A stretch of DNA of 64,000 nt from an uncultured bacterium (GTDB lineage: Bacteria; Patescibacteriota; JAHJAL01): assembly GCA_938004065.1 (NCBI GenBank), contig CALKWM010000039.1, forward strand, positions 65,313 to 129,312, written 5' to 3'. The notes under the pieces were generated by a model. That model was not told where the DNA came from and did not search any database. It was given only the letters and a program-made list of their open reading frames with translations. Of this stretch, positions 9,706 to 61,894 are shown piece after piece. Each line of letters starts with the position of its first letter. Position 1 is the first letter of the stretch. A program made the translations under genes and the position numbers.

Positions 9706-10245
9706 ATGAGTAAATGGTATAACTATATTTTTTTGTTTTTTGGCTTGTTTGGTTTTGTAGTGTCGCTTACAATACTTTTTTTCGCCATGCGCGCCGTTAT
9801 GGATGTCGGTGGATATTGCGCTGAGGGTGGGGCATATCAGATTTCCGTTCACTGTCCGGAGGGTGTCGCGTATCTAACGCCACTTTCGATTTTTGGTCTA
9901 TTGATCTTTGGTGGCATGTATTTTTTCAACGTCGTCCCCGCCGCTTTCAATTTTGGTTACCTATTCTGGACTGCGTTATTTGGGTCGCTGGGATGGAATT
10001 TTCTCGATTACGCGGTTTTTCAATCCGATAATATCGAAATTGCTTGGCTAATCTGTGCCATTTTGTTTTTACTGATGGCTTTTGGTCCTTTTATCCTGCT
10101 GGTTTTGGTCGCTGACGATATGAAAAATTACCGGGTTGGTTTTGGCAAAAATTTATTTAGAAAAATTATCCTTTTTCTCTATCAAATCATGGCCATTGCT
10201 CTGGGTATCTGGGTCGGGGCATACGTTTTTACCCACCTTTCTTGA
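9706..10245 (+). CDS. Hypothetical polytopic membrane protein
   Basis: 179-aa ORF with 4-5 hydrophobic helices and coding-like composition. No recognisable motif. Confidence 0.4.
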   Translation: MSKWYNYIFLFFGLFGFVVSLTILFFAMRAVMDVGGYCAEGGAYQISVHCPEGVAYLTPLSIFGLLIFGGMYFFNVVPAAFNFGYLFWTALFGSLGWNFLDYAVFQSDNIEIAWLICAILFLLMAFGPFILLVLVADDMKNYRVGFGKNLFRKIILFLYQIMAIALGIWVGAYVFTHLS

Positions 10246-10354: not shown

Positions 10355-12889
10355 CTATATTAATTTTTTTATTAATTCCTTGAACCTTGCCGGCTGAAAT
10401 GGTTTGGTGATAATATCATCCATTCCGGCCTGATAACACTCATCCATTTCTTTCTGAAAAGAATGAGCGGTCTGGGCAACAATAATGTTTCTTTTCGATC
10501 CGGTTGTTTTTTCATATTCCCGAATTTTTTTGGTCGCCTCACAACCATCCATCTGTGGCATCTGGTAATCCATTAAAATTATGTCGTATGGATTTTTCAT
10601 AGCCAGATCCACTGCCTCTTGTCCATTCACCGCCAGATCAATCTGACTTAAACCCATCTTTTCCAGGACTTTTTTAACCAACTTTTGGTTTATCAAATTG
10701 TCTTCCGCCAACAAAATTCTCAAATTCATATCAGCAAATACCGCCTTCTCTTTACTGATTTTTTTGGGGGTTTCTTGTGATTTTTTACCAAATATTTCCC
10801 CCAGAACTTTTTTTAGTTGAATATAACTTATCGGTTTTGAGATAACGGAACAAAAAATATTTTTGTCACCATATTTTTTGCCGTCGGAAGAAAGCAGAAC
10901 TAGCGGTAAATCAGGTTCTATTTTTTTGATTTCTCTCGCCAGCTCCAATCCATCCATTTTTGGCATATGCATATCCAAAATAGCTAGATCCACATCATTG
11001 TACTTGTCTCTTTTGATACCATTAAGGTAATTCAAGGCCTCTGCGCCTGAAGCGGCGGCAAACGGTTTTACCTTTCTGGCCATCAGGTAGTTTGTCAAAC
11101 ATATCCGATTGGTCTCGACGTCGTCCACAATGAGGATTTTCTTTCCCTCCAATTGTGGTAAAACAGCCGACTCATAATTTGCTGATTTGTCTGATCTTGT
11201 GATCTTAATCGTAAAACTAAATGTAGAGCCATTGTTTTCTTCCGTCTCAACCCAGATTCTGCCACCCATTATTTCGACCAATCTTTTTGTGATAGATAGT
11301 CCCAGACCGGTGCCACCGTATTTTCGAGTCGTGGAACTATCGGCTTGCATAAATGGTTTAAACAATAAAAACAGCTTGTCTTCCGCGATGCCGATACCGG
11401 TATCTTTGACGGAAAAAAGCAAATCATCATCATTCTTTGTAACGCTTAAAATAATTTCCCCTCCACTTTTGGTAAATTTGGTTGCGTTTGACAACAAGTT
11501 CGTCAAAACTTGTCTCAATCTCAATCCATCAGCCCAAATAATTTTAGGGACATTTTCGTCAATGAAATAATTCAGTTCCAAAGTATTTTCATAAACCTTG
11601 GGAGAAACAATGTCAATCGCGCACTCCACGCACTCCCGAATATTTATTTTGGATTCATCGAGCTGGATATTGCCCGATTCTATTTTGGATAAATCCAAAA
11701 TATCATTGATTATTGCCAATAGCACATCGGCTGAACTGCTGATAGTATTGAGATATTCTCTTTGTTCGCTGTCTAAATTTGTGTCCGACAGCAAATCCGC
11801 CATTCCGATTATTCCATTCATTGGCGTCCTGATCTCGTGGCTCATATTGGCCAGAAAACTAGTTTTGGCTCGATTGGCGCATTCTGCTTTATCTTTGGCC
11901 TCGAGCAAGTCGCATTGATAAGCTTCAATCGATTTTATCATAAAATCGATATTTTCCGTCAGTCGTGATATTTCATCCCTGCTCTGCCCGATAGGCCTGG
12001 TATCCATTTTTTTTCGATGTGGCACTTGTGATATTTTTGTGTCCAGTTCTATCAAACGGGAAATAATTCTTGTGTTAATGAATTTTATCAACAAAAAACA
12101 AAATACTGACCCAAAGCATAGAAACATGAGGAAATTATACCTTATGCTATTTTTGCCTTGTTTGTAGATGTCTCGTGGCAAGACAACTTTTGTTGTAAAA
12201 ATTGCTTTCCCTTGCGGATCATAAATATTTTTATAACCGGCGATAGTATTGTCAGAAAGTTTGATAGCGTCATCACGAAGTGGCGCAACTATCGTAAGTG
12301 GCAATTCCATTTTTTCGGACAAGTCATTGATAAAATATTTATCAACGTACCTGCCAAATATCAATTTACCTTGCGGTGTGCCGGTTCTGTCTGATTTTAC
12401 AATTGGTTTTGTGCTTACCAAAATAATTCGTCCGTTCAAATCTATAAAACCGCCAAAAAATGACTCATGCGGATGATCTTTTTCGACAAATTTTATCAAT
12501 TCTTCCACCGACCCGTTGAACCTTTTTTCCTGAAAATCATATGAATTGGAATACACAACTCGGTGATCTTTATCCATAAAAACCATCACATTGACTTTAG
12601 TGTTGATATAATCGCTCTCATTGAGATAATTTGTCGAAAAATCTTCAAAATCTCCCCGAACAAACTTGCAACTATCATCCCAACAAGCCCAATCCTCTGT
12701 CGTTCGTTCCAGATCGTCAATTTCTTTATCAAAAAAACTTTTTATTCTACCCAAGTTTTTTTGCATCCTCGACTCTTCTATTTCCGCAAAACTGTTCAAA
12801 AAAATTACATTGGATATTAGATACAAAATCACTACCAAGACTATAAACAAAAACATAATTACAACAGTAGTCTTTGCTTGTAAATTCAC
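10355..12889 (-). CDS. Hybrid sensor histidine kinase with two receiver domains
   Basis: N-terminal TM + roughly 230-aa extracytoplasmic sensor + second TM. HisKA H-box [15 protein letters not shown]. HATPase [12 protein letters not shown]1 ([10 protein letters not shown]...DMHMPKMDG). REC2 ([13 protein letters not shown]...[10 protein letters not shown]). Confidence 0.88.
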
Positions 12890-39657: not shown

Positions 39658-41253
39658 TTGGCTTTAATTTCAATGAAAAACACAAAATATATCATCTATG
39701 CCCGCCGGTCCTCTGATGAAAAATCAGGCAATCAGGCGAAGTCTATTCCTGACCAGATTGATGCTTGCCTTGATTTAGCATATAGATTGGGAATAAAAAT
39801 CAATAAAGATAAGGATATTTATTCGGAAAGTAAATCAGCAAAGACCTATGACAACCGGCCAATATTCAACAAAATTATTCATATGATTGAGAAGGGAGTT
39901 GTTGAGGGCATAATATCTTGGCATCCGGATAGGTTGTCGAGAAATATGTTTGAAGCTGGGAAAATAATAGATTTATTGGATGTTGGGAAAATAAAAGATT
40001 TAAAATTTTGTACTCACCATTTCGAAAATACTGCATCCGGAAAGATGATGTTGGGTATTATGTTTGCTATTTCCAAAGAGTATAGCGATAAATTGAGTGA
40101 GAATATCAGCAGGGGCTATCGGACTAATTTTGAGCAGGGTATATCCGGCGGTAAGCCAAAATGGGGCTATAAAATTGACGAGAGTGGCTATTATGTACCG
40201 GACGAGCCGAACTATAGCATTATTAAAAAAGCTTGGGAAATGAGGCTTGAGGGGGTTACAGTAAATAAAATATTTGAATGGCTGAAGACTATGGATTGCC
40301 ATCGGTATTTTAAGAACAATAGAGATAACAAAAAATATATCACCAAAACAGCACTTGGATATATTTTCAAAGACGCTTTGTATTATGGGATTTTGCGACG
40401 GAAGGATAAATTTGTGGAATTGAAAAAAATATACGATTTTCAGCCAATGATAAACCAAGCAGAATTTAATATGGTCCAGAAAATCAATCCACGAGCACCA
40501 AAGGTATATACCAAATTAGAACTACCATTTCGGGATAACATCGTAAAATGCGAATGCGGAAAGTATTGCTTTCCAACTATTGAGACCGGCCGGAAAGATA
40601 GGTATTTATCTTTATACTGTAGGGATAGAATGAAATGCAAATCAGGAAAGTATCGAACAAGGGCAAAGAAGATTGTGGATGCAATATCTGATGATTTGGA
40701 GAACAAATTTGGTCCGAAGAAAAAGAACTTTGAAATAGTAAAGGAGAGGTTATTAAAAGCTATTGAGGCAAAACAAAATGATGACACAAAAAAAATAGCT
40801 TATTTGAATAGAAAAATAAGCGTTAAAAAGAAAGAATACGATAGCTTGGTACTTAATTGTTTGAAAAAGGAAAAGGACTTGAGCAAGGAAGAAAGAAAGG
40901 TTTACGAGAGGGAAAAGATGAAACTAACAAATGAGATTGCCGGTTACGAAGAAGAACGAGACACTATCAAGAAAAATGATGTACTGAAAGACTTTGACTA
41001 TGAATTTTTTTCGAACTTTTTGAAGAACATAAGCCAGTACTGGAAAAAGGCGAATTATAAACAAAAACACATAATTGCAAAAATTATGTTTTCGAACATA
41101 GTGGTTAGTGGCGGAAAAGTCTTTTATTTACAATACAATCCGTTTATAGCGGACCTTTTTGCTCTGGGAAGTGGAGATGGCCGGAGTCGAACCGGCGTCC
41201 AAAATTGTTTAACATCAATTTCTACATGTTTAGTTAAGTTTAAAATTTTTTAG
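39658..41253 (+). CDS. Large serine recombinase (site-specific integrase)
   Basis: N-terminal resolvase catalytic domain (YARRSSDEK...S...Q). Recombinase domain. Zinc-ribbon CECGKYCFP...CRDRMKC. C-terminal coiled coil. The 3' end runs through the right direct repeat. Confidence 0.85.
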   Translation: MALISMKNTKYIIYARRSSDEKSGNQAKSIPDQIDACLDLAYRLGIKINKDKDIYSESKSAKTYDNRPIFNKIIHMIEKGVVEGIISWHPDRLSRNMFEAGKIIDLLDVGKIKDLKFCTHHFENTASGKMMLGIMFAISKEYSDKLSENISRGYRTNFEQGISGGKPKWGYKIDESGYYVPDEPNYSIIKKAWEMRLEGVTVNKIFEWLKTMDCHRYFKNNRDNKKYITKTALGYIFKDALYYGILRRKDKFVELKKIYDFQPMINQAEFNMVQKINPRAPKVYTKLELPFRDNIVKCECGKYCFPTIETGRKDRYLSLYCRDRMKCKSGKYRTRAKKIVDAISDDLENKFGPKKKNFEIVKERLLKAIEAKQNDDTKKIAYLNRKISVKKKEYDSLVLNCLKKEKDLSKEERKVYEREKMKLTNEIAGYEEERDTIKKNDVLKDFDYEFFSNFLKNISQYWKKANYKQKHIIAKIMFSNIVVSGGKVFYLQYNPFIADLFALGSGDGRSRTGVQNCLTSISTCLVKFKIF

Positions 41254-41740
41254 TTTAAATTGATTTAATAACCAACAAAAGACCAATTTAAACGACATAT
41301 GTTACTTGGATTTAGTCAGATATGTAAGCCAACTAAATTGCGTCATAGTAAGTTTTGGCACCCAAGATCTGGTCGCTATGCCGATCAGGTTGGATGGCTG
41401 CCTAATTATTTAGGCAACGGCAGTAGCCATAGAAAATTGAGGAGTAAAAAGACTCTTCAATTTAGCTACAAAAGTGTTTGCATTTACATGCATGTAATTT
41501 GTAAATTTAAGTGGAGCAAATTACAACCCACCACATGCTTATGATATTAAAGATCAATTCTGTCGAAACCAAATCATCCCCTAAATTTGCGCGAGCAAAT
41601 TTCTTTGCATAACTCACGAAAACTTAGCGAGTGACTTAGAAAATCAAAATGCAAAACTCAAAGATCAAAATTACAACTAATAAATAAAAATTAATATAAA
41701 TTTAAAGAATAATTAATATGATTAATTCTATACTTTTAAT

Positions 41741-54815: not shown

Positions 54816-56516
<1,701 letters not shown>

Positions 56517-56529
56517 AATATTTGTTTTA

Positions 56530-56612
56530 AATTCGTTTTTTAAGTAGGGACAGCACACCGTGCTGTCCTTCTTGTATCCATATTTCGGACAGCATGATAT
56601 GCTGTCCCTACG
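56530..56612. repeat. REP doublet: two perfect palindromes gggacagcacACCgtgctgtcc (56547-56568) and ggacagcatGATatgctgtcc (56587-56607)
   Basis: Read directly. The unit aattcgttttttaagtaggga...gctgtccctacg lies between the groEL stop and the RAYT stop. Confidence 0.8.
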
Positions 56613-56617
56613 AAAAA

Positions 56618-57169
56618 TTAATACCACAATTTTCCGGGATTATCCCGATCCCATTGCCATTTTTTGGGATTGTTCAAGATATAATCCCGGATATTTTCAT
56701 ATTCATTTTTTTCAAAATCAATTATATGATCATAAAATGACCGTTGCCAACGGAAATAAATATTTGTATTATTGATTTGTTTTTTAGTTACAACTTTGAA
56801 CGATTTAATAATTTTAGACAATAAACCATACCGCGTAAGGACAGCACACCGTGCTGTCCTTCTTGTATCCATATTTCGGACAGCATGATATGCTGTCCCT
56901 ACGTCATGCGAATCAATGATTATTATTGCATGTAAATGGTTTGGCATAATAATCCAATCATCCAATTCGACATTACTATAAAATTTGGGAATATTCTTTA
57001 AACATTCCTCCACCACCCACCCCGCCTCATTCAAAACCATTTTCCCATTTTTGACTTCACCCAATACGCACTCCATGTCCTGCACACAAACCGTCACAAA
57101 ATACCATCCAGGAGAGGAATAATCATAACTGGACAAACGATTATTTTTTCTTTTATGAAATTTTCTCAT
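56618..57169 (-). CDS. REP-associated tyrosine transposase (RAYT, IS200/IS605-like Y1 HuH transposase) carrying an in-frame REP insertion
   Basis: PGWYFVTV (cf. E. coli TnpA-REP GGTWFFTV). HuH motif MPNHLHAII. WQRSFYDHIIDF...NPKKWQW (cf. WQPRFWEHAIRN...NPVKHGW). The ORF reads through a REP doublet at 56836-56905 encoding about 24 extra residues between the HuH and Tyr motifs. Confidence 0.75.
   Translation of the reverse strand: MRKFHKRKNNRLSSYDYSSPGWYFVTVCVQDMECVLGEVKNGKMVLNEAGWVVEECLKNIPKFYSNVELDDWIIMPNHLHAIIIIDSHDVGTAYHAVRNMDTRRTARCAVLTRYGLLSKIIKSFKVVTKKQINNTNIYFRWQRSFYDHIIDFEKNEYENIRDYILNNPKKWQWDRDNPGKLWY
56836..56905. repeat. REP doublet copy located inside the RAYT coding sequence
   Basis: aaggacagcacaccgtgctgtccttcttgtatccatatttcggacagcatgatatgctgtccctacg is identical to the 56545-56612 copy. 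It translates in-frame as ...VGTAYHAVRNMDTRRTARCAVLTR.... Confidence 0.8.
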
Positions 57170-57215
57170 GTTTTAAAAATATTCCATCTGTCATTAACAA
57201 AACCTTAACGAAAAA

Positions 57216-57342
57216 TTAAATTCGTTTTTTAAGTAGGGACTTACACATTGTGCTGTCCTTTCTATATGCATGTTTCGGGACTTACACACCGTGCTGTCCT
57301 TCTTGTATCCATATTTCGGACAGCATGATATGTTGTCCCTAC
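57216..57342. repeat. REP cluster of three palindrome units, two degenerate, upstream of RAYT
   Basis: aattcgttttttaagtagggacttacacattgtgctgtcc...gggacttacacaccgtgctgtcc...ggacagcatgatatgttgtccctac. Confidence 0.75.
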
Positions 57343-57388
57343 TGTAATCACATAATCAAAAAAAATTGAGGAATTTTATTCCTCAAAA

Positions 57389-57592
57389 TTAAACACTTTT
57401 TATTTTCACAACTTCCCCCTCCATTATGATCGAGATTTTGTCCTTCGTCCAGTGGAAAGAAACGTGATTAGTGTCAAATATCAGATCCGGTAAATCTTTA
57501 TGTCTGACGATAGTCTGCCCTTCCTCAAACAAAACTTCACACTCACCACTTTTTTCTTCGCTCTCGAAAAAACGATTGATGTTTATTTGCAC
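57389..57592 (-). CDS. Small hypothetical protein
   Basis: 67-aa ORF. Weak. Confidence 0.25.
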   Translation of the reverse strand: MQININRFFESEEKSGECEVLFEEGQTIVRHKDLPDLIFDTNHVSFHWTKDKISIIMEGEVVKIKSV

Positions 57593-60106: not shown

Positions 60107-61894
60107 TTAGTAATACCAGCTCTCATCATAATATCCGGGATCATAGTAATAACTATCGTCCCAGTATTCGACATCACCGTTGGGATGGTCCCAAGAATAA
60201 TCTTCATAATAATAATCATCGTAGTAATAATCATCCCAACCATAGAACACTCCGCTTGGGTCATAATATCCGCTACCGTCATACAAGACATAATTCCCGT
60301 AACTATCATAGTATCCGTCCGAATCGCTATAATAATCATCATAAGTGTATTCTTCCCAGGAATGAAATTGACCATTTATATCATAATAACCGCTACCGTC
60401 ATAGAGTACATAATTACCGTCATAATCGTAATACCCATCATAATCATAATAATAATCGTCATAGATAAAATCATCCCAACTCCAAAAACTACCATATATA
60501 TCATAATATCCGCTACCGTCATTCAAAATATAGTTACCATAATCATCGTAGTACCCATCCGCACCGTCAATCGGAGCGTATTGCTCTGTTGGCCACCAGT
60601 ATCCCCATGGATCATAATACCCGCTACCATCTGCTAGATAATAATTTCCATAATCGTCATACCACCCCTCTCCGTATAACTCATCCCAGTACCAGAAATA
60701 TCCCCATGGATCATAATATCCACTTCCATCATCCAAGATATAATTACCAAATTCATCATAATATCCGGCTTCCGGATAATCATATTGATCATATGAACCC
60801 CAGTCGGTACCGAAATTCCAGAAATTTCCATACACATCATAATACCCGCTACCATCATAAAGAATATAGTTTCCAGTGCCGTCATAATATCCGGATTGTG
60901 GAAATTTGTAAGATGGTTTGAATGTCTGTTTGTAAACACCAAATGGAATCGTGGTGAAATAATTGCCGTTATAGTAAATTTCTACCCAATAACTTCCATT
61001 GTACCAACTCTTGCCTTCGCTGTTTTTTAATGTGAAATTCACATACCCTGATTGATCGGACGAAATGTTTACCGCCGCGTCCCCCAGATATTCACCTTTA
61101 CCGTTAAATCCTTCCCAGTACCAGACACCCCACAAATAATCACCTGCTTTCAAATTATTCCAATTGGTATTGGCAAAAAATTTCTGAGCGTTATCATAGT
61201 AAAAGTCAGTCACTCCCCGGCATGAACCATCATCATTTAACCCATCACACATAAACGCATTGATAAAATAACTACCTTTGGCTTTGTCAGGAGTTACGAT
61301 GGCTGATTGGCTTTCCGCGATCATCGCCGGATTGGATTTGGGTGAAACGAATTGGGATTTATCATTTGTCTTTGTCTTGTCATATTGCAAATTGCCCGAG
61401 ACCTCAGTCTTGGTGCCCTTTACGCTTTTGTCAGGATTATTTTTTTCGTCGTTTGTATTGTATAACTTCGTTTTTTTATCATCTGTATTGATACTAAAAT
61501 CCTTGGCGGTTATTTGCGTATCAGCGGAAAATACATTCATCACATAATTACCCCCATCCCATCCAATGGTTGGTTTGAATAACTCAAATTTAAACTCACC
61601 GGTGCTATCTGACGTTTTGGTTTCAGTTTTGATCACTTTTTGCGGACTTTTCTTTTCCCACTTTACCGTCAATTCTCCCTTACCATTTTTTAACACACCG
61701 GCAAAGATGATTTTTTCCGTATCGCCACCAAAACCATCGCTGGCATCAGCCAGTTTTACTATCTCATCCCCGGTTTGAGCCGCCAACATCGCTTTTTCGA
61801 TTTCCGCAACCTTTTTTGTTGTTGGCAGACAACCGGACGAAACCAACACAAAAAAAGCGGTCGAAAGCGCAATTAGTGTCTTTTTCATAATCAA
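60107..61894 (-). CDS. Lipoprotein with extensive Tyr/Asp/Gly-rich tandem repeats
   Basis: Lipobox VSSGC. N-terminal roughly 330-aa globular region. C-terminal roughly 260 aa made of repeats GYYDxxGNYxLxDGSGYYDxxGxFWxW with very high Y/D/G/W content. Confidence 0.5.
   Translation of the reverse strand: MIMKKTLIALSTAFFVLVSSGCLPTTKKVAEIEKAMLAAQTGDEIVKLADASDGFGGDTEKIIFAGVLKNGKGELTVKWEKKSPQKVIKTETKTSDSTGEFKFELFKPTIGWDGGNYVMNVFSADTQITAKDFSINTDDKKTKLYNTNDEKNNPDKSVKGTKTEVSGNLQYDKTKTNDKSQFVSPKSNPAMIAESQSAIVTPDKAKGSYFINAFMCDGLNDDGSCRGVTDFYYDNAQKFFANTNWNNLKAGDYLWGVWYWEGFNGKGEYLGDAAVNISSDQSGYVNFTLKNSEGKSWYNGSYWVEIYYNGNYFTTIPFGVYKQTFKPSYKFPQSGYYDGTGNYILYDGSGYYDVYGNFWNFGTDWGSYDQYDYPEAGYYDEFGNYILDDGSGYYDPWGYFWYWDELYGEGWYDDYGNYYLADGSGYYDPWGYWWPTEQYAPIDGADGYYDDYGNYILNDGSGYYDIYGSFWSWDDFIYDDYYYDYDGYYDYDGNYVLYDGSGYYDINGQFHSWEEYTYDDYYSDSDGYYDSYGNYVLYDGSGYYDPSGVFYGWDDYYYDDYYYEDYSWDHPNGDVEYWDDSYYYDPGYYDESWYY

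Follow-up and report, generated by a model that had tools for sequence, protein, structure and literature searches.

The window analysed here, a stretch of DNA 64,000 nucleotides long, very probably harbours a REPtron, i.e., a single-copy RAYT gene of the subclass 2.4 (group 4) type and its cognate REPs, with one REPIN lying inside the gene itself and homogenised with the other copies. TnpA_Y1 subclass 2.4, which is the RAYT group 4 of Bertels et al. 2017, was defined by Quentin, Siguier, Chandler & Fichant 2018 (BMC Genomics 19:475; PMC6006769), where an in-frame REP insertion between HuH and Y is given as its unique feature, so that the in-gene arrangement has been known as a trait of the subclass since 2018. 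An initial annotation of this DNA had taken the internal copy for the enzyme's own REP element lodged in its gene with the frame kept, which stands, and, implicitly, for a singular, recent accident of this one gene, which does not: the trait is family-wide, and in a relative (L001) the element occupies the same codon.

Table 1. Positions of the REPtron features and of the adjoining groEL gene within the window.
Feature	Position	Strand	Remarks
groEL, convergent neighbour	54858..56516	(+)	ORF list; GroEL homologs with PF00118
25-nt exact direct repeat TTAAATTCGTTTTTTAAGTAGGGAC, copy 1	56527..56551	(+)	Repeat family D4
Downstream REPIN, between convergent groEL and RAYT	56544..56612		Repeat family D1, reference copy
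RAYT / TnpA-REP gene	56618..57169	(-)	183 aa, intact ORF, TnpA_Y1 subclass 2.4 type; ORF list
Tyr motif YILNNP, Y163-P168	56666..56683	(-)	Direct sequence reading
WQ motif, W141-Q142 (RWQRSFYDH)	56744..56749	(-)	Direct sequence reading
Internal REP doublet (REPIN), 69 nt = 23 codons	56835..56903		D1, 99 % to downstream copy
HuH motif PNHLH, residues 76-80	56930..56944	(-)	Direct sequence reading
25-nt exact direct repeat, copy 2, adjoins upstream REP cluster	57216..57240	(+)	D4
Upstream REP cluster, three units	57236..57343		Repeat families D1 + D2
GTAG-footed REP hairpin unit of the locus			GTAG-GGACAGCA

The identification of the 183-aa minus-strand ORF as a RAYT-type Y1 HuH enzyme, first proposed from hallmarks such as PGWYFVTV, MPNHLHAII and WQRSFYDH, is supported by its subclass 2.4 motifs and its predicted fold. 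The ORF has every residue invariant in an alignment of 119 family sequences (alignment A2: Y23, C28, G50, H78, H80, K125, Y163 and N167), and its WQ motif is conserved there at more than 90 %. Its best family match was NCBIfam REP_Tyr_transpos (NF047646, an equivalog; E = 5e-13, 49.2 bits), and taking out the 23 insert residues raised the score to 60.1 bits, both values being below the curated cut-off of 80 bits, which applies to the whole-protein score. Pfam PF01797 (Y1_Tnp, IS200-like transposase) gave 19.8 bits, under its gathering threshold of 23 bits, and aligned with the C-terminal half alone because the insert splits the domain. Since these curated cut-offs were missed, it is the motifs, the homolog context and the fold that place the protein in the family. 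The protein has 742 homologs, many of them with PF01797 or the name RayT, and most with a precomputed PF01797 match. The AF2 model has a mean pLDDT of 86, and a Foldseek search of the PDB returned as its top match 4ER8, TnpA-REP with a REP hairpin (E = 8e-7, probability 1.00), followed by the transposases of IS608, ISDra2 and IS200.

One element of the earlier reading had to be replaced: the catalytic Tyr had been placed in WQRSFYDH, whereas the actual Tyr motif of the family is YIxNNP, with Y163 in the window protein. Instead of the spacing of about 30 aa derived from that placement, H80 and Y163 are 83 residues apart, or 60 without the insert; the medians of the insert-free subclasses are 58-67 (PMC6006769).

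Judged by their letters, the flanking palindromes are GTAG-footed REPs in an inverted doublet, i.e., a REPIN. The element proper runs for 68 nt from GTAG to CTAC, and one extra base common to the internal and downstream copies brings these to 69 nt; the downstream copy has the layout GTAG-GGACAGCAC-ACC-GTGCTGTCC, an 18-nt spacer, and GGACAGCAT-GAT-ATGCTGTCC-CTAC. A repeat search of the window gave three in-register copies of the 69-nt unit. As had been annotated, a doublet follows directly on the RAYT stop (6 nt past it, abutting the 3' end of groEL) and a partly degenerate cluster of three units precedes the start, by 66 nt; the two 21-nt palindromes were exact where they had been reported, and dinucleotide-shuffled versions of the window gave an expectation of 0 matches. 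In the cluster, the D1 copy (57275-57343) is 86 % to the downstream reference and a further degenerate unit occupies 57236-57276; two of the three units have the mutated arm GGGACTTACAC, with loss of pairing, and the hairpin of the third (57318-57338) has one mismatch. The 25-nt direct repeat consists of 17 nt of non-REP flank and the REP foot. Two alternative folds are predicted for the doublets, a pair of hairpins or a single long REPIN hairpin (z about -8 at -21 kcal/mol), the values being -21.2 kcal/mol (z = -8) for the internal doublet as DNA, -21.1 kcal/mol (z = -7.6) for the downstream REPIN as a single long hairpin, and -19 kcal/mol (z = -5.3) for the upstream cluster.

Outside the REPtron, no REP copy was found in the 64-kb window with up to 3 mismatches allowed, and a 30-mer from the core of the doublet had 0 exact matches in a metagenome collection. 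A scan of genome contigs with GTAGGGACAGCAYNNNRTGCTGTCC gave at least 120 matches, those listed being mostly from Opitutales/Verrucomicrobiota and Omnitrophota, with fewer from Falkowbacteria, Zixiibacteriota, KSB1 and others, and none of those listed from the source genome. Promoter and terminator scans of the locus gave nothing specific for the REPs; a canonical minus-strand terminator (57386-57366) is located upstream of the REP cluster. An Rfam scan found no RNA family at the locus, its sole match in the window being a tmRNA elsewhere.

The internal doublet lies between the HuH and Tyr motifs, as first noted, and differs from the downstream copy at only 1/68 positions. It is indeed read in frame, although as residues 90-112 (VGTAYHAVRNMDTRRTARCAVLT), one fewer than the 24 or so originally estimated. 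In the AF2 model, residues 95-100 and 104-113 have pLDDT values under 50 and fall between a predicted strand (78-85) and helix (116-133). As usual in this subclass, the REPIN occupies the permissive loop that joins the HuH strand (beta3) to helix alphaC, and its 23 residues, modelled with low confidence, probably form a disordered loop that leaves HuH, WQ and YIxNNP all intact.

That such an insert is the rule in this family was evident from its homologs. Homologs belonging to many phyla have segments of the VGT...VPT type in this position (alignment A1), and every one of the 69 homolog loci retained by a filter of strict HuH/WQ motif patterns had a hairpin of 8 bp or more between HuH and WQ, i.e., 68 of 80 metagenome loci plus L001, with the window locus, which also passes, counted apart. 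The loci missed by the filter mostly had both motifs in one frame; in several the WQ was not found, and one had an internal stop. In essentially all loci examined the insert was in frame, with the GTAG foot in codon phase 0 at 29 loci, phase 1 at 15 and phase 2 at one. The perfect stem had a median of 11 bp in the 69 loci against 5 bp in an N-terminal coding control, a comparison used because a covariation count would be circular for hairpins that were chosen for being palindromic. Homologs with the extra residues, and no REP-like DNA behind them, had been named at the outset as the observation that would speak against a REP origin; the extra residues proved to be encoded by REP-like palindromes. 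In 24 of the 69 loci, an 11-mer of the locus's own internal hairpin recurred in the flanks (+-1.5 kb), against 2.7 % in a cross-locus control.

The palindrome is perfect and nearly universal although the peptide it encodes is hypervariable, which could also indicate that the in-gene palindrome of subclass 2.4 RAYTs is a selected cis element and not a tolerated insertion, for example an autoregulatory hairpin in ssDNA or mRNA by which the RAYT or its host adjusts expression of the gene, or else a protected master REP; selection would then bear on the structure of the nucleic acid. We regard this as unlikely. Some stem differences between loci appear compensatory (e.g., GTAGGGGCACGGCATGCCGTGCCCCTAC vs GTAGGGGCACAGCATGCTGTGCCCCTAC), the internal copy is homogenised with the others within one genome, and the internal hairpin is more constant than the flanking ones, often occurring at loci with no detectable REP in the flanks: of 36 loci whose flanks reached 1 kb or more on each side, only 18 had a perfect hairpin of at least 9 bp within 1 kb, and only 12 had a flanking hairpin related to the internal one, although these counts cover short flanks only. 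Decay does occur, however, with perfect stems of 7 bp or less in about 10 % of loci, and one locus (L204) retains only the left arm GTAGGGACAGCAC of its internal REP in an otherwise intact gene with full REPs in its flanks. Moreover, frequent conversion from a genomic REP population would keep the palindromy without selection. The same L204 (the P0008 locus) was ruled out as a positional ortholog of the window locus by its different gene neighbourhood.

The history of the insert within the REPtron was clarified by closer relatives. L001 and L002 have a RAYT of 77 % aa identity with the doublet at the same codon as in the window (GAC|GTA GGG), from which it follows that the insertion is older than this organism; their groEL is 80 % identical in nucleotides to that of the window, and both have a frameshift near codon 152 of the RAYT. 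The window groEL itself has as its nearest named match a protein of a 'Patescibacteria group bacterium' (78 % identity). The internal copy of the window differs at 9/68 positions from its positional ortholog in L001, and the internal copy of L001 differs from its own groEL-side copy at 4/68. As far as these sequences tell, then, internal and flanking copies evolve in concert within a genome.

A recent one-off transposition, in which the RAYT moved the flanking REPIN into its own insert-free gene and the frame was kept by luck, would account for the single difference between internal and downstream copies and for the two palindromes being found nowhere else in the window. It is nevertheless most improbable: the doublet of L001 and L002 is at the exact same codon in spite of 9/68 differences, palindromes occupy the same loop in distant homologs of many phyla, the trait is published as family-wide (PMC6006769), and no empty-site allele, i.e., a RAYT without the insert, was found among the relatives examined. 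Given the published subclass trait and the same-codon doublet of L001, the near-identity of the internal and flanking copies is to be attributed to later homogenisation and not to a fresh insertion. Equally improbable is a decaying pseudogene, in which a REPIN landed by chance in frame in a dead transposase remnant, for, in spite of the missed HMM cut-offs and the damaged relatives (L001/L002, and L123, which is without its 3' half), the window ORF is full length with all invariant family residues and a confident predicted fold, and the insert is in frame in essentially all of the homolog loci examined.

For the REPtron, a mechanism can be proposed in which the internal copy is held near-identical to the genome's other copies, among local REPINs, by either gene conversion or RAYT-mediated replacement. 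Homogenisation of this kind would keep the palindrome at the DNA level and leave the encoded peptide free to drift. By analogy, the enzyme may act as E. coli TnpA-REP does, binding REP hairpins in ssDNA and cutting and rejoining beside the GTAG foot; the biochemistry behind this analogy, REP binding and cleavage/rejoining by TnpA-REP, is reportedly the work of Ton-Hoang et al. in 2012. No published activity of any subclass 2.4 enzyme was found in the literature.

The internal and downstream REPINs also form 68-nt direct repeats 291 bp apart, and deletions between these homologous stretches would cost the gene its catalytic half. Just such an allele was seen in L123, a near-identical strain represented by a single 1.2-kb Logan contig (SRR32844786), in which the 291 bp between the two copies are missing, and with them the catalytic half, so that the N-terminal half of the RAYT is followed by one REPIN and then directly by the 3' end of groEL; the deletion, known from that one contig, could be an assembly collapse across the repeat. 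The substitutions of L123 are in REP loops, spacers or the foot, except for 3 near one contig end in a neighbouring 67-aa ORF; the RAYT leader and N-terminal coding part, about 330 nt together, are free of them, as are 532 nt at the groEL end. The same direct repeats may likewise offer homology for the rearrangement of neighbouring genes. The neighbours include a DUF456 gene, and in one relative tyrS stands between two REPINs where the window has a single REPIN.

Taken alone, the locus is of little weight, since it adds a further case, from what is probably a Patescibacteria genome, to a peculiarity already published for a RAYT subfamily. It is, however, a clean natural case for the co-evolution of REPs and REPINs with a domesticated transposase, in which homogenisation of the internal with the flanking copies is plain to see within a genome and nearly all substitutions between near-identical strains sit in the repeats. 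The internal copy also gives the gene a built-in route to deletion, of which L123 would be the one allele seen. Were the in-gene hairpin functional, it would provide a handle on the biological role of RAYTs, and were it a selected element, gene and repeat would co-evolve as a single unit, in which the enzyme has its conserved target within its own coding sequence.

The closest comparison is with subclass 2.4 as a whole, for which the signatures NH[IFV]H, WQ and YIxNNP are given in Table 1 of PMC6006769, together with 8 inserted residues where helix alphaB ends and the lack of a conserved C-terminal tail domain. The window RAYT shares with it the N before the first His of HuH, the WQ and the YIxNNP, a similar length (183 aa; subclass median 194) and HuH-Y distance (83 residues; median 88), and an in-frame REP that sits in the beta3-alphaC loop, past HuH and ahead of Y; it ends 15 residues past the Y motif, so that a tail domain is impossible. 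The subclass is further marked by canonical REPs of the long or double-foot kind, with a 5' GT[AG]G foot, no farther than +-1 kb from the gene, and the window gene has its GTAG-footed REPs 6 nt past the stop and 66 nt ahead of the start. [quoted passage not shown]

With E. coli TnpA-REP (subclass 2.2, 4ER8) the window enzyme shares the HuH/Y1 fold and the WQ-type region of the GTAG-recognition segment, W94/Q95 of the E. coli protein, the equivalents of W141-Q142, being discussed under recognition of the GTAG guide sequence (PMC6006769), and in both REPtrons 5' GTAG-footed REPs flank a single-copy gene. The E. coli enzyme differs in its DH-type HuH (subclass consensus DHLH), WE and YIHYNP, its gene is without an internal REP, and its REPs are long, bulged and present in hundreds of copies, whereas the window has local copies only. 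REPINs (Bertels & Rainey 2011, PMC3116915) are likewise inverted REP pairs with a short spacer that form one long hairpin and are associated with a RAYT, but those make up a replicating genome-wide population, whereas what is seen for the window locus is three clustered copies in 64 kb. Finally, the palindromic elements of Rickettsia and the intragenic GTAG/CGTC REPs (Di Nocera et al. 2013, PMC3733652) offer precedents for in-frame palindromic repeats tolerated as extra surface peptide; what sets the window locus apart from them is that the host gene is the presumed transposase of the repeat itself, and that the position of the insert is constant across the subfamily.

The minus-strand ORF had been read in the initial annotation as the gene of a REP-associated tyrosine transposase (RAYT) into which a REP doublet had inserted, and this reading proved essentially right. 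Its top family match was NCBIfam REP_Tyr_transpos (E = 5e-13, 49 bits), under the 80-bit cut-off of that family, and the score rose to as much as 60 bits once the 23 inserted residues were removed; Pfam Y1_Tnp aligned to the C-terminal half alone (19.8 bits vs a threshold of 23), and phmmer against PDB sequences produced just a weak match, to 4ER8. An AlphaFold2 model based on an MSA of 119 homologs was confident (mean pLDDT 86, pTM 0.79), and a Foldseek search of the PDB with it returned 4ER8, i.e., E. coli TnpA-REP with a REP hairpin bound, in first place, followed by the IS608, ISDra2 and IS200 transposases. The residues invariant in the 119-sequence alignment (Y23, C28, G50, H78, H80, K125, Y163 and N167) are all present in the window protein, so the ORF looks functional. 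The catalytic tyrosine, which had initially been placed in WQRSFYDH, is instead Y163 of YILNNP, 83 residues from H80, or 60 without the insert. The sole internal low-confidence stretch of the model (residues 95-100 and 104-113) falls after the HuH strand (78-85) and before the helix that follows it (116-133), and is the segment encoded by the REP doublet.

A repeat search of the window found three 69-nt copies in register, each with the layout GTAG-GGACAGCAC-ACC-GTGCTGTCC, 18-nt spacer, GGACAGCAT-GAT-ATGCTGTCC-CTAC, i.e., two inverted REP hairpins with a GTAG foot at either outer end, which is the design of a REPIN. The element proper is 68 nt, and the internal and downstream copies have one extra base in common, which brings them to 69 nt. 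An in-frame doublet inside the transposase gene was thereby confirmed, its length being 23 codons rather than the about 24 first counted, and it is read as VGTAYHAVRNMDTRRTARCAVLT (residues 90-112). As single-stranded DNA, the doublet folds equally well into two hairpins or one long one (about -21 kcal/mol, z near -8). The two 21-mer palindromes originally reported are exact at the positions assigned to them, with 0 expected by chance in shuffles, and the other ~63 kb of the window holds no further copies, even at 3 mismatches. The two tandem upstream units (57236-57317) have the same arm mutation, GGGACTTACAC in place of GGGACAGCAC, by which the hairpin is destroyed, so their duplication came after degeneration. 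Since a terminator precedes this cluster, transcription of RAYT probably depends on a separate promoter located in the REP units or after them.

Features of the RAYT locus and of other parts of the window
Feature	Position	Strand	Remarks
RAYT ORF	56618..57169	-	183 aa; PGWYFVTV, MPNHLHAII, RWQRSFYDH, DYILNNP
Downstream REPIN, 69-nt unit	56544-56612		starts 6 nt past the RAYT stop codon; separates RAYT from the convergent groEL; repeat search
Internal REPIN, 69-nt unit	56835-56903		within the RAYT CDS; 99 % identity; repeat search
Upstream 69-nt unit	57275-57343		86 % identity; repeat search
Additional degenerate REP unit	57236-57276		precedes the upstream 57275-57343 unit
25-nt exact direct repeat	56527-56551, 57216-57240		TTAAATTCGTTTTTTAAGTAGGGAC; left side of both flanking clusters
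Canonical intrinsic terminator	57366-57386	-	TTGAGGAATAAAATTCCTCAA then T8; terminates the 67-aa ORF upstream, immediately ahead of the REP cluster
tmRNA gene	41169-41581	-	Rfam RF00023, 142 bits
Internally repeated stretches	60209-60894		several align to one and the same region of L001 (6326-6986), suggesting a gene for a repeat-containing protein

A variable segment occupies the insert position in 22/22 of the closest homologs (e.g., VGTEQCSVPT, VGTGHCPVPT and VGTGLKPVPT), which, if named, are labelled as transposases of Patescibacteria, Roizmanbacteria or Francisella, among others. When these extra residues were checked for REP-like DNA, palindromes were found to encode them, the VGT...VPT segments back-translating to GTAGGGACAG...CTGTCCCTAC. 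Eighty metagenome loci were fetched with the family alignment, and strict HuH/WQ patterns matched in 68 of them (those missed were mostly motif variants in one frame, and one had an internal stop); with L001, a contig from a relative, these made up the 69 loci analysed, and the window locus passes the same filter. Between HuH and WQ, 69/69 loci have a hairpin of 8 bp or more with no more than 1 mismatch, mostly as a 13-16-bp double-foot palindrome, and the median longest perfect stem is 11 bp there vs 5 bp in an equal-length N-terminal coding control. It usually starts 6-14 residues past the HuH motif (median 10), with the GTAG foot in codon phase 0 in 29 loci, phase 1 in 15 and phase 2 once; the presence of two foot phases implies that insertion or replacement took place more than once at the beta3-alphaC loop. 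That the internal element is of the locus's own REP type is indicated by an 11-mer of the hairpin, which recurs within the +-1.5 kb flanks at 24/69 loci vs 2.7 % in cross-locus controls. Where at least 1 kb was available on either side (36 loci), a perfect hairpin of at least 9 bp occurs within 1 kb in 18, and one related to the internal hairpin in only 12, i.e., the internal copy is more constant than the flanking copies. In about a tenth of loci it has decayed to a perfect stem of at most 7 bp; at the P0008 locus (L204), the left arm GTAGGGACAGCAC alone remains in an intact gene, with full hairpins kept in the flanks.

Two Logan contigs from relatives, L001 and L002, with 77 % RAYT protein identity and 80 % groEL DNA identity to the window, are syntenic with it across about 14 kb and have the doublet at exactly the same codon, so the insertion predates the split of the lineages. 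Over 68 nt, the internal copy of the window has 1 mismatch to the downstream copy vs 9 to its positional ortholog in L001, and the L001 internal copy has 4 to the copy on the groEL side and 9 to the L001 downstream copy. By these counts, copies have been homogenised within genomes, which points to concerted evolution via gene conversion or re-insertion. In the window, identity at the two flanking clusters reaches 17 nt beyond the REP (TTAAATTCGTTTTTTAA), as the 25-nt direct repeat attests, and this shared non-REP flank suggests, and indeed favours, a conversion or duplication tract reaching past the REP. An A-run near codon 152 (about 10471-10480) carries a frameshift in the RAYT of L001/L002, and since the two contigs come from different samples and share exactly this shift, the gene is probably a genuine pseudogene. 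L001/L002 also have tyrS between the REPIN on the RAYT side and a second REPIN beside groEL (L001 10576-12022), where the window has one REPIN; tyrS is absent from the entire 64-kb window, and its presence or absence is a REPIN-bounded rearrangement. Upstream of the L001 RAYT (9930-9958) is a different degenerate palindrome, GTAGAGACAGGTTTGAAACCTGTGCCTGC, which resembles the internal REPs of other members (VGTGLKPVPT class), unlike the REP of its own locus.

A near-identical strain is represented by L123, a 1.2-kb Logan contig (SRR32844786), which was compared with window 56012-57538. The RAYT leader plus N-terminal coding sequence (~330 nt) and the groEL end (532 nt) each show 0 substitutions; 3 are found close to one end of the contig, within the adjacent 67-aa ORF, and all others are in REP loops, spacers or foot. 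A single REPIN stands in place of the internal and downstream pair of the window, and the 291 bp between these copies, encoding the WQ and Tyr motifs (the catalytic half of RAYT), are missing, so that the N-terminal half passes through one REPIN directly into the groEL 3' end. Such a structure is the expected product of recombination between direct 68-nt repeats, which is its probable origin, and an assembly collapse is a lesser but real possibility given that the deletion is known from a single short contig. With a recombinational deletion as the probable event, RAYT is intact in the window, 3'-deleted in L123 and frameshifted in L001/L002, i.e., the state of the gene differs across three close lineages, and REPINs are found at the rearrangement junctions.

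The window has a G+C content of 38.5 %, and the nearest named protein to its GroEL is from a 'Patescibacteria group bacterium' (78 % identity). The exact doublet 30-mer had 0 matches in the metagenome collection. The hairpin GTAG-GGACAGCA-N5-TGCTGTCC had at least 120 matches to genome contigs; those listed include many from Opitutales/Verrucomicrobiota and Omnitrophota and a Falkowbacteria MAG, and it also lies inside a Zixiibacteriota RAYT homolog. Its occurrence in multiple phyla marks the stem sequence as a REP type with a wide distribution, which agrees with the patchy, transfer-prone spread reported for subclass 2.4 of the TnpA_Y1 proteins (PMC6006769). Among the matches listed (L003-L122), GTAGGGACAGCA-N5-TGCTGTCC is dispersed over many Opitutales/Verrucomicrobiota contigs, and its Omnitrophota form is a double-foot palindrome. 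The Zixiibacteriota homolog (L078, 195-692 of Candidatus Zixiibacteriota MAG JAAEQD010000381.1) is 39 % identical and has the same hairpin, GGACAGCACAGTGTGCTGTCC, at 460-484, with the peptide RTAQCAVPT.

The locus, then, encodes a protein of RAYT fold whose catalytic motifs are intact and has cognate GTAG REPs arranged as REPINs, one of them in frame in a loop that is predicted with low confidence and is probably disordered; the in-gene arrangement is conserved across the subfamily, with homogenisation within genomes and structural variants bounded by the repeats. By analogy with E. coli TnpA-REP, the RAYT would bind single-stranded REP hairpins and cut them at the GTAG foot. The protein may tolerate the loop because of its distance from the DNA-binding and catalytic surfaces, a conclusion also reached in PMC6006769, and conversion from sister copies, not selection acting on the peptide, would maintain the palindrome. 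That the in-gene hairpin has a function of its own, be it autoregulation or service as a master copy, seems quite unlikely, because decayed internal copies occur in otherwise intact genes.

In their classification of TnpA_Y1 proteins, Quentin, Siguier, Chandler and Fichant (2018; PMC6006769) described subclass 2.4, which is Bertels' RAYT group 4, as having the motifs NH[IFV]H (HuH), WQ and YIxNNP (Y), a median length of 194 aa without a tail domain, long or 'double-foot' REPs (GT[AG]G...C[TC]AC), and a variable insertion between beta3 and alphaC that stems from REP sequence inserted in frame and brings the median distance from HuH to Y to 88 residues (58-67 for most subclasses). Each signature that could be tested is matched by the window protein: NHLH, WQ, YILNNP, 183 aa and 83 residues. 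An in-gene REP is an already published hallmark of subclass 2.4, to which this locus makes a modest addition in the evidence for concerted evolution, a probable deletion allele and a tyrS gene whose presence or absence is bounded by REPINs.
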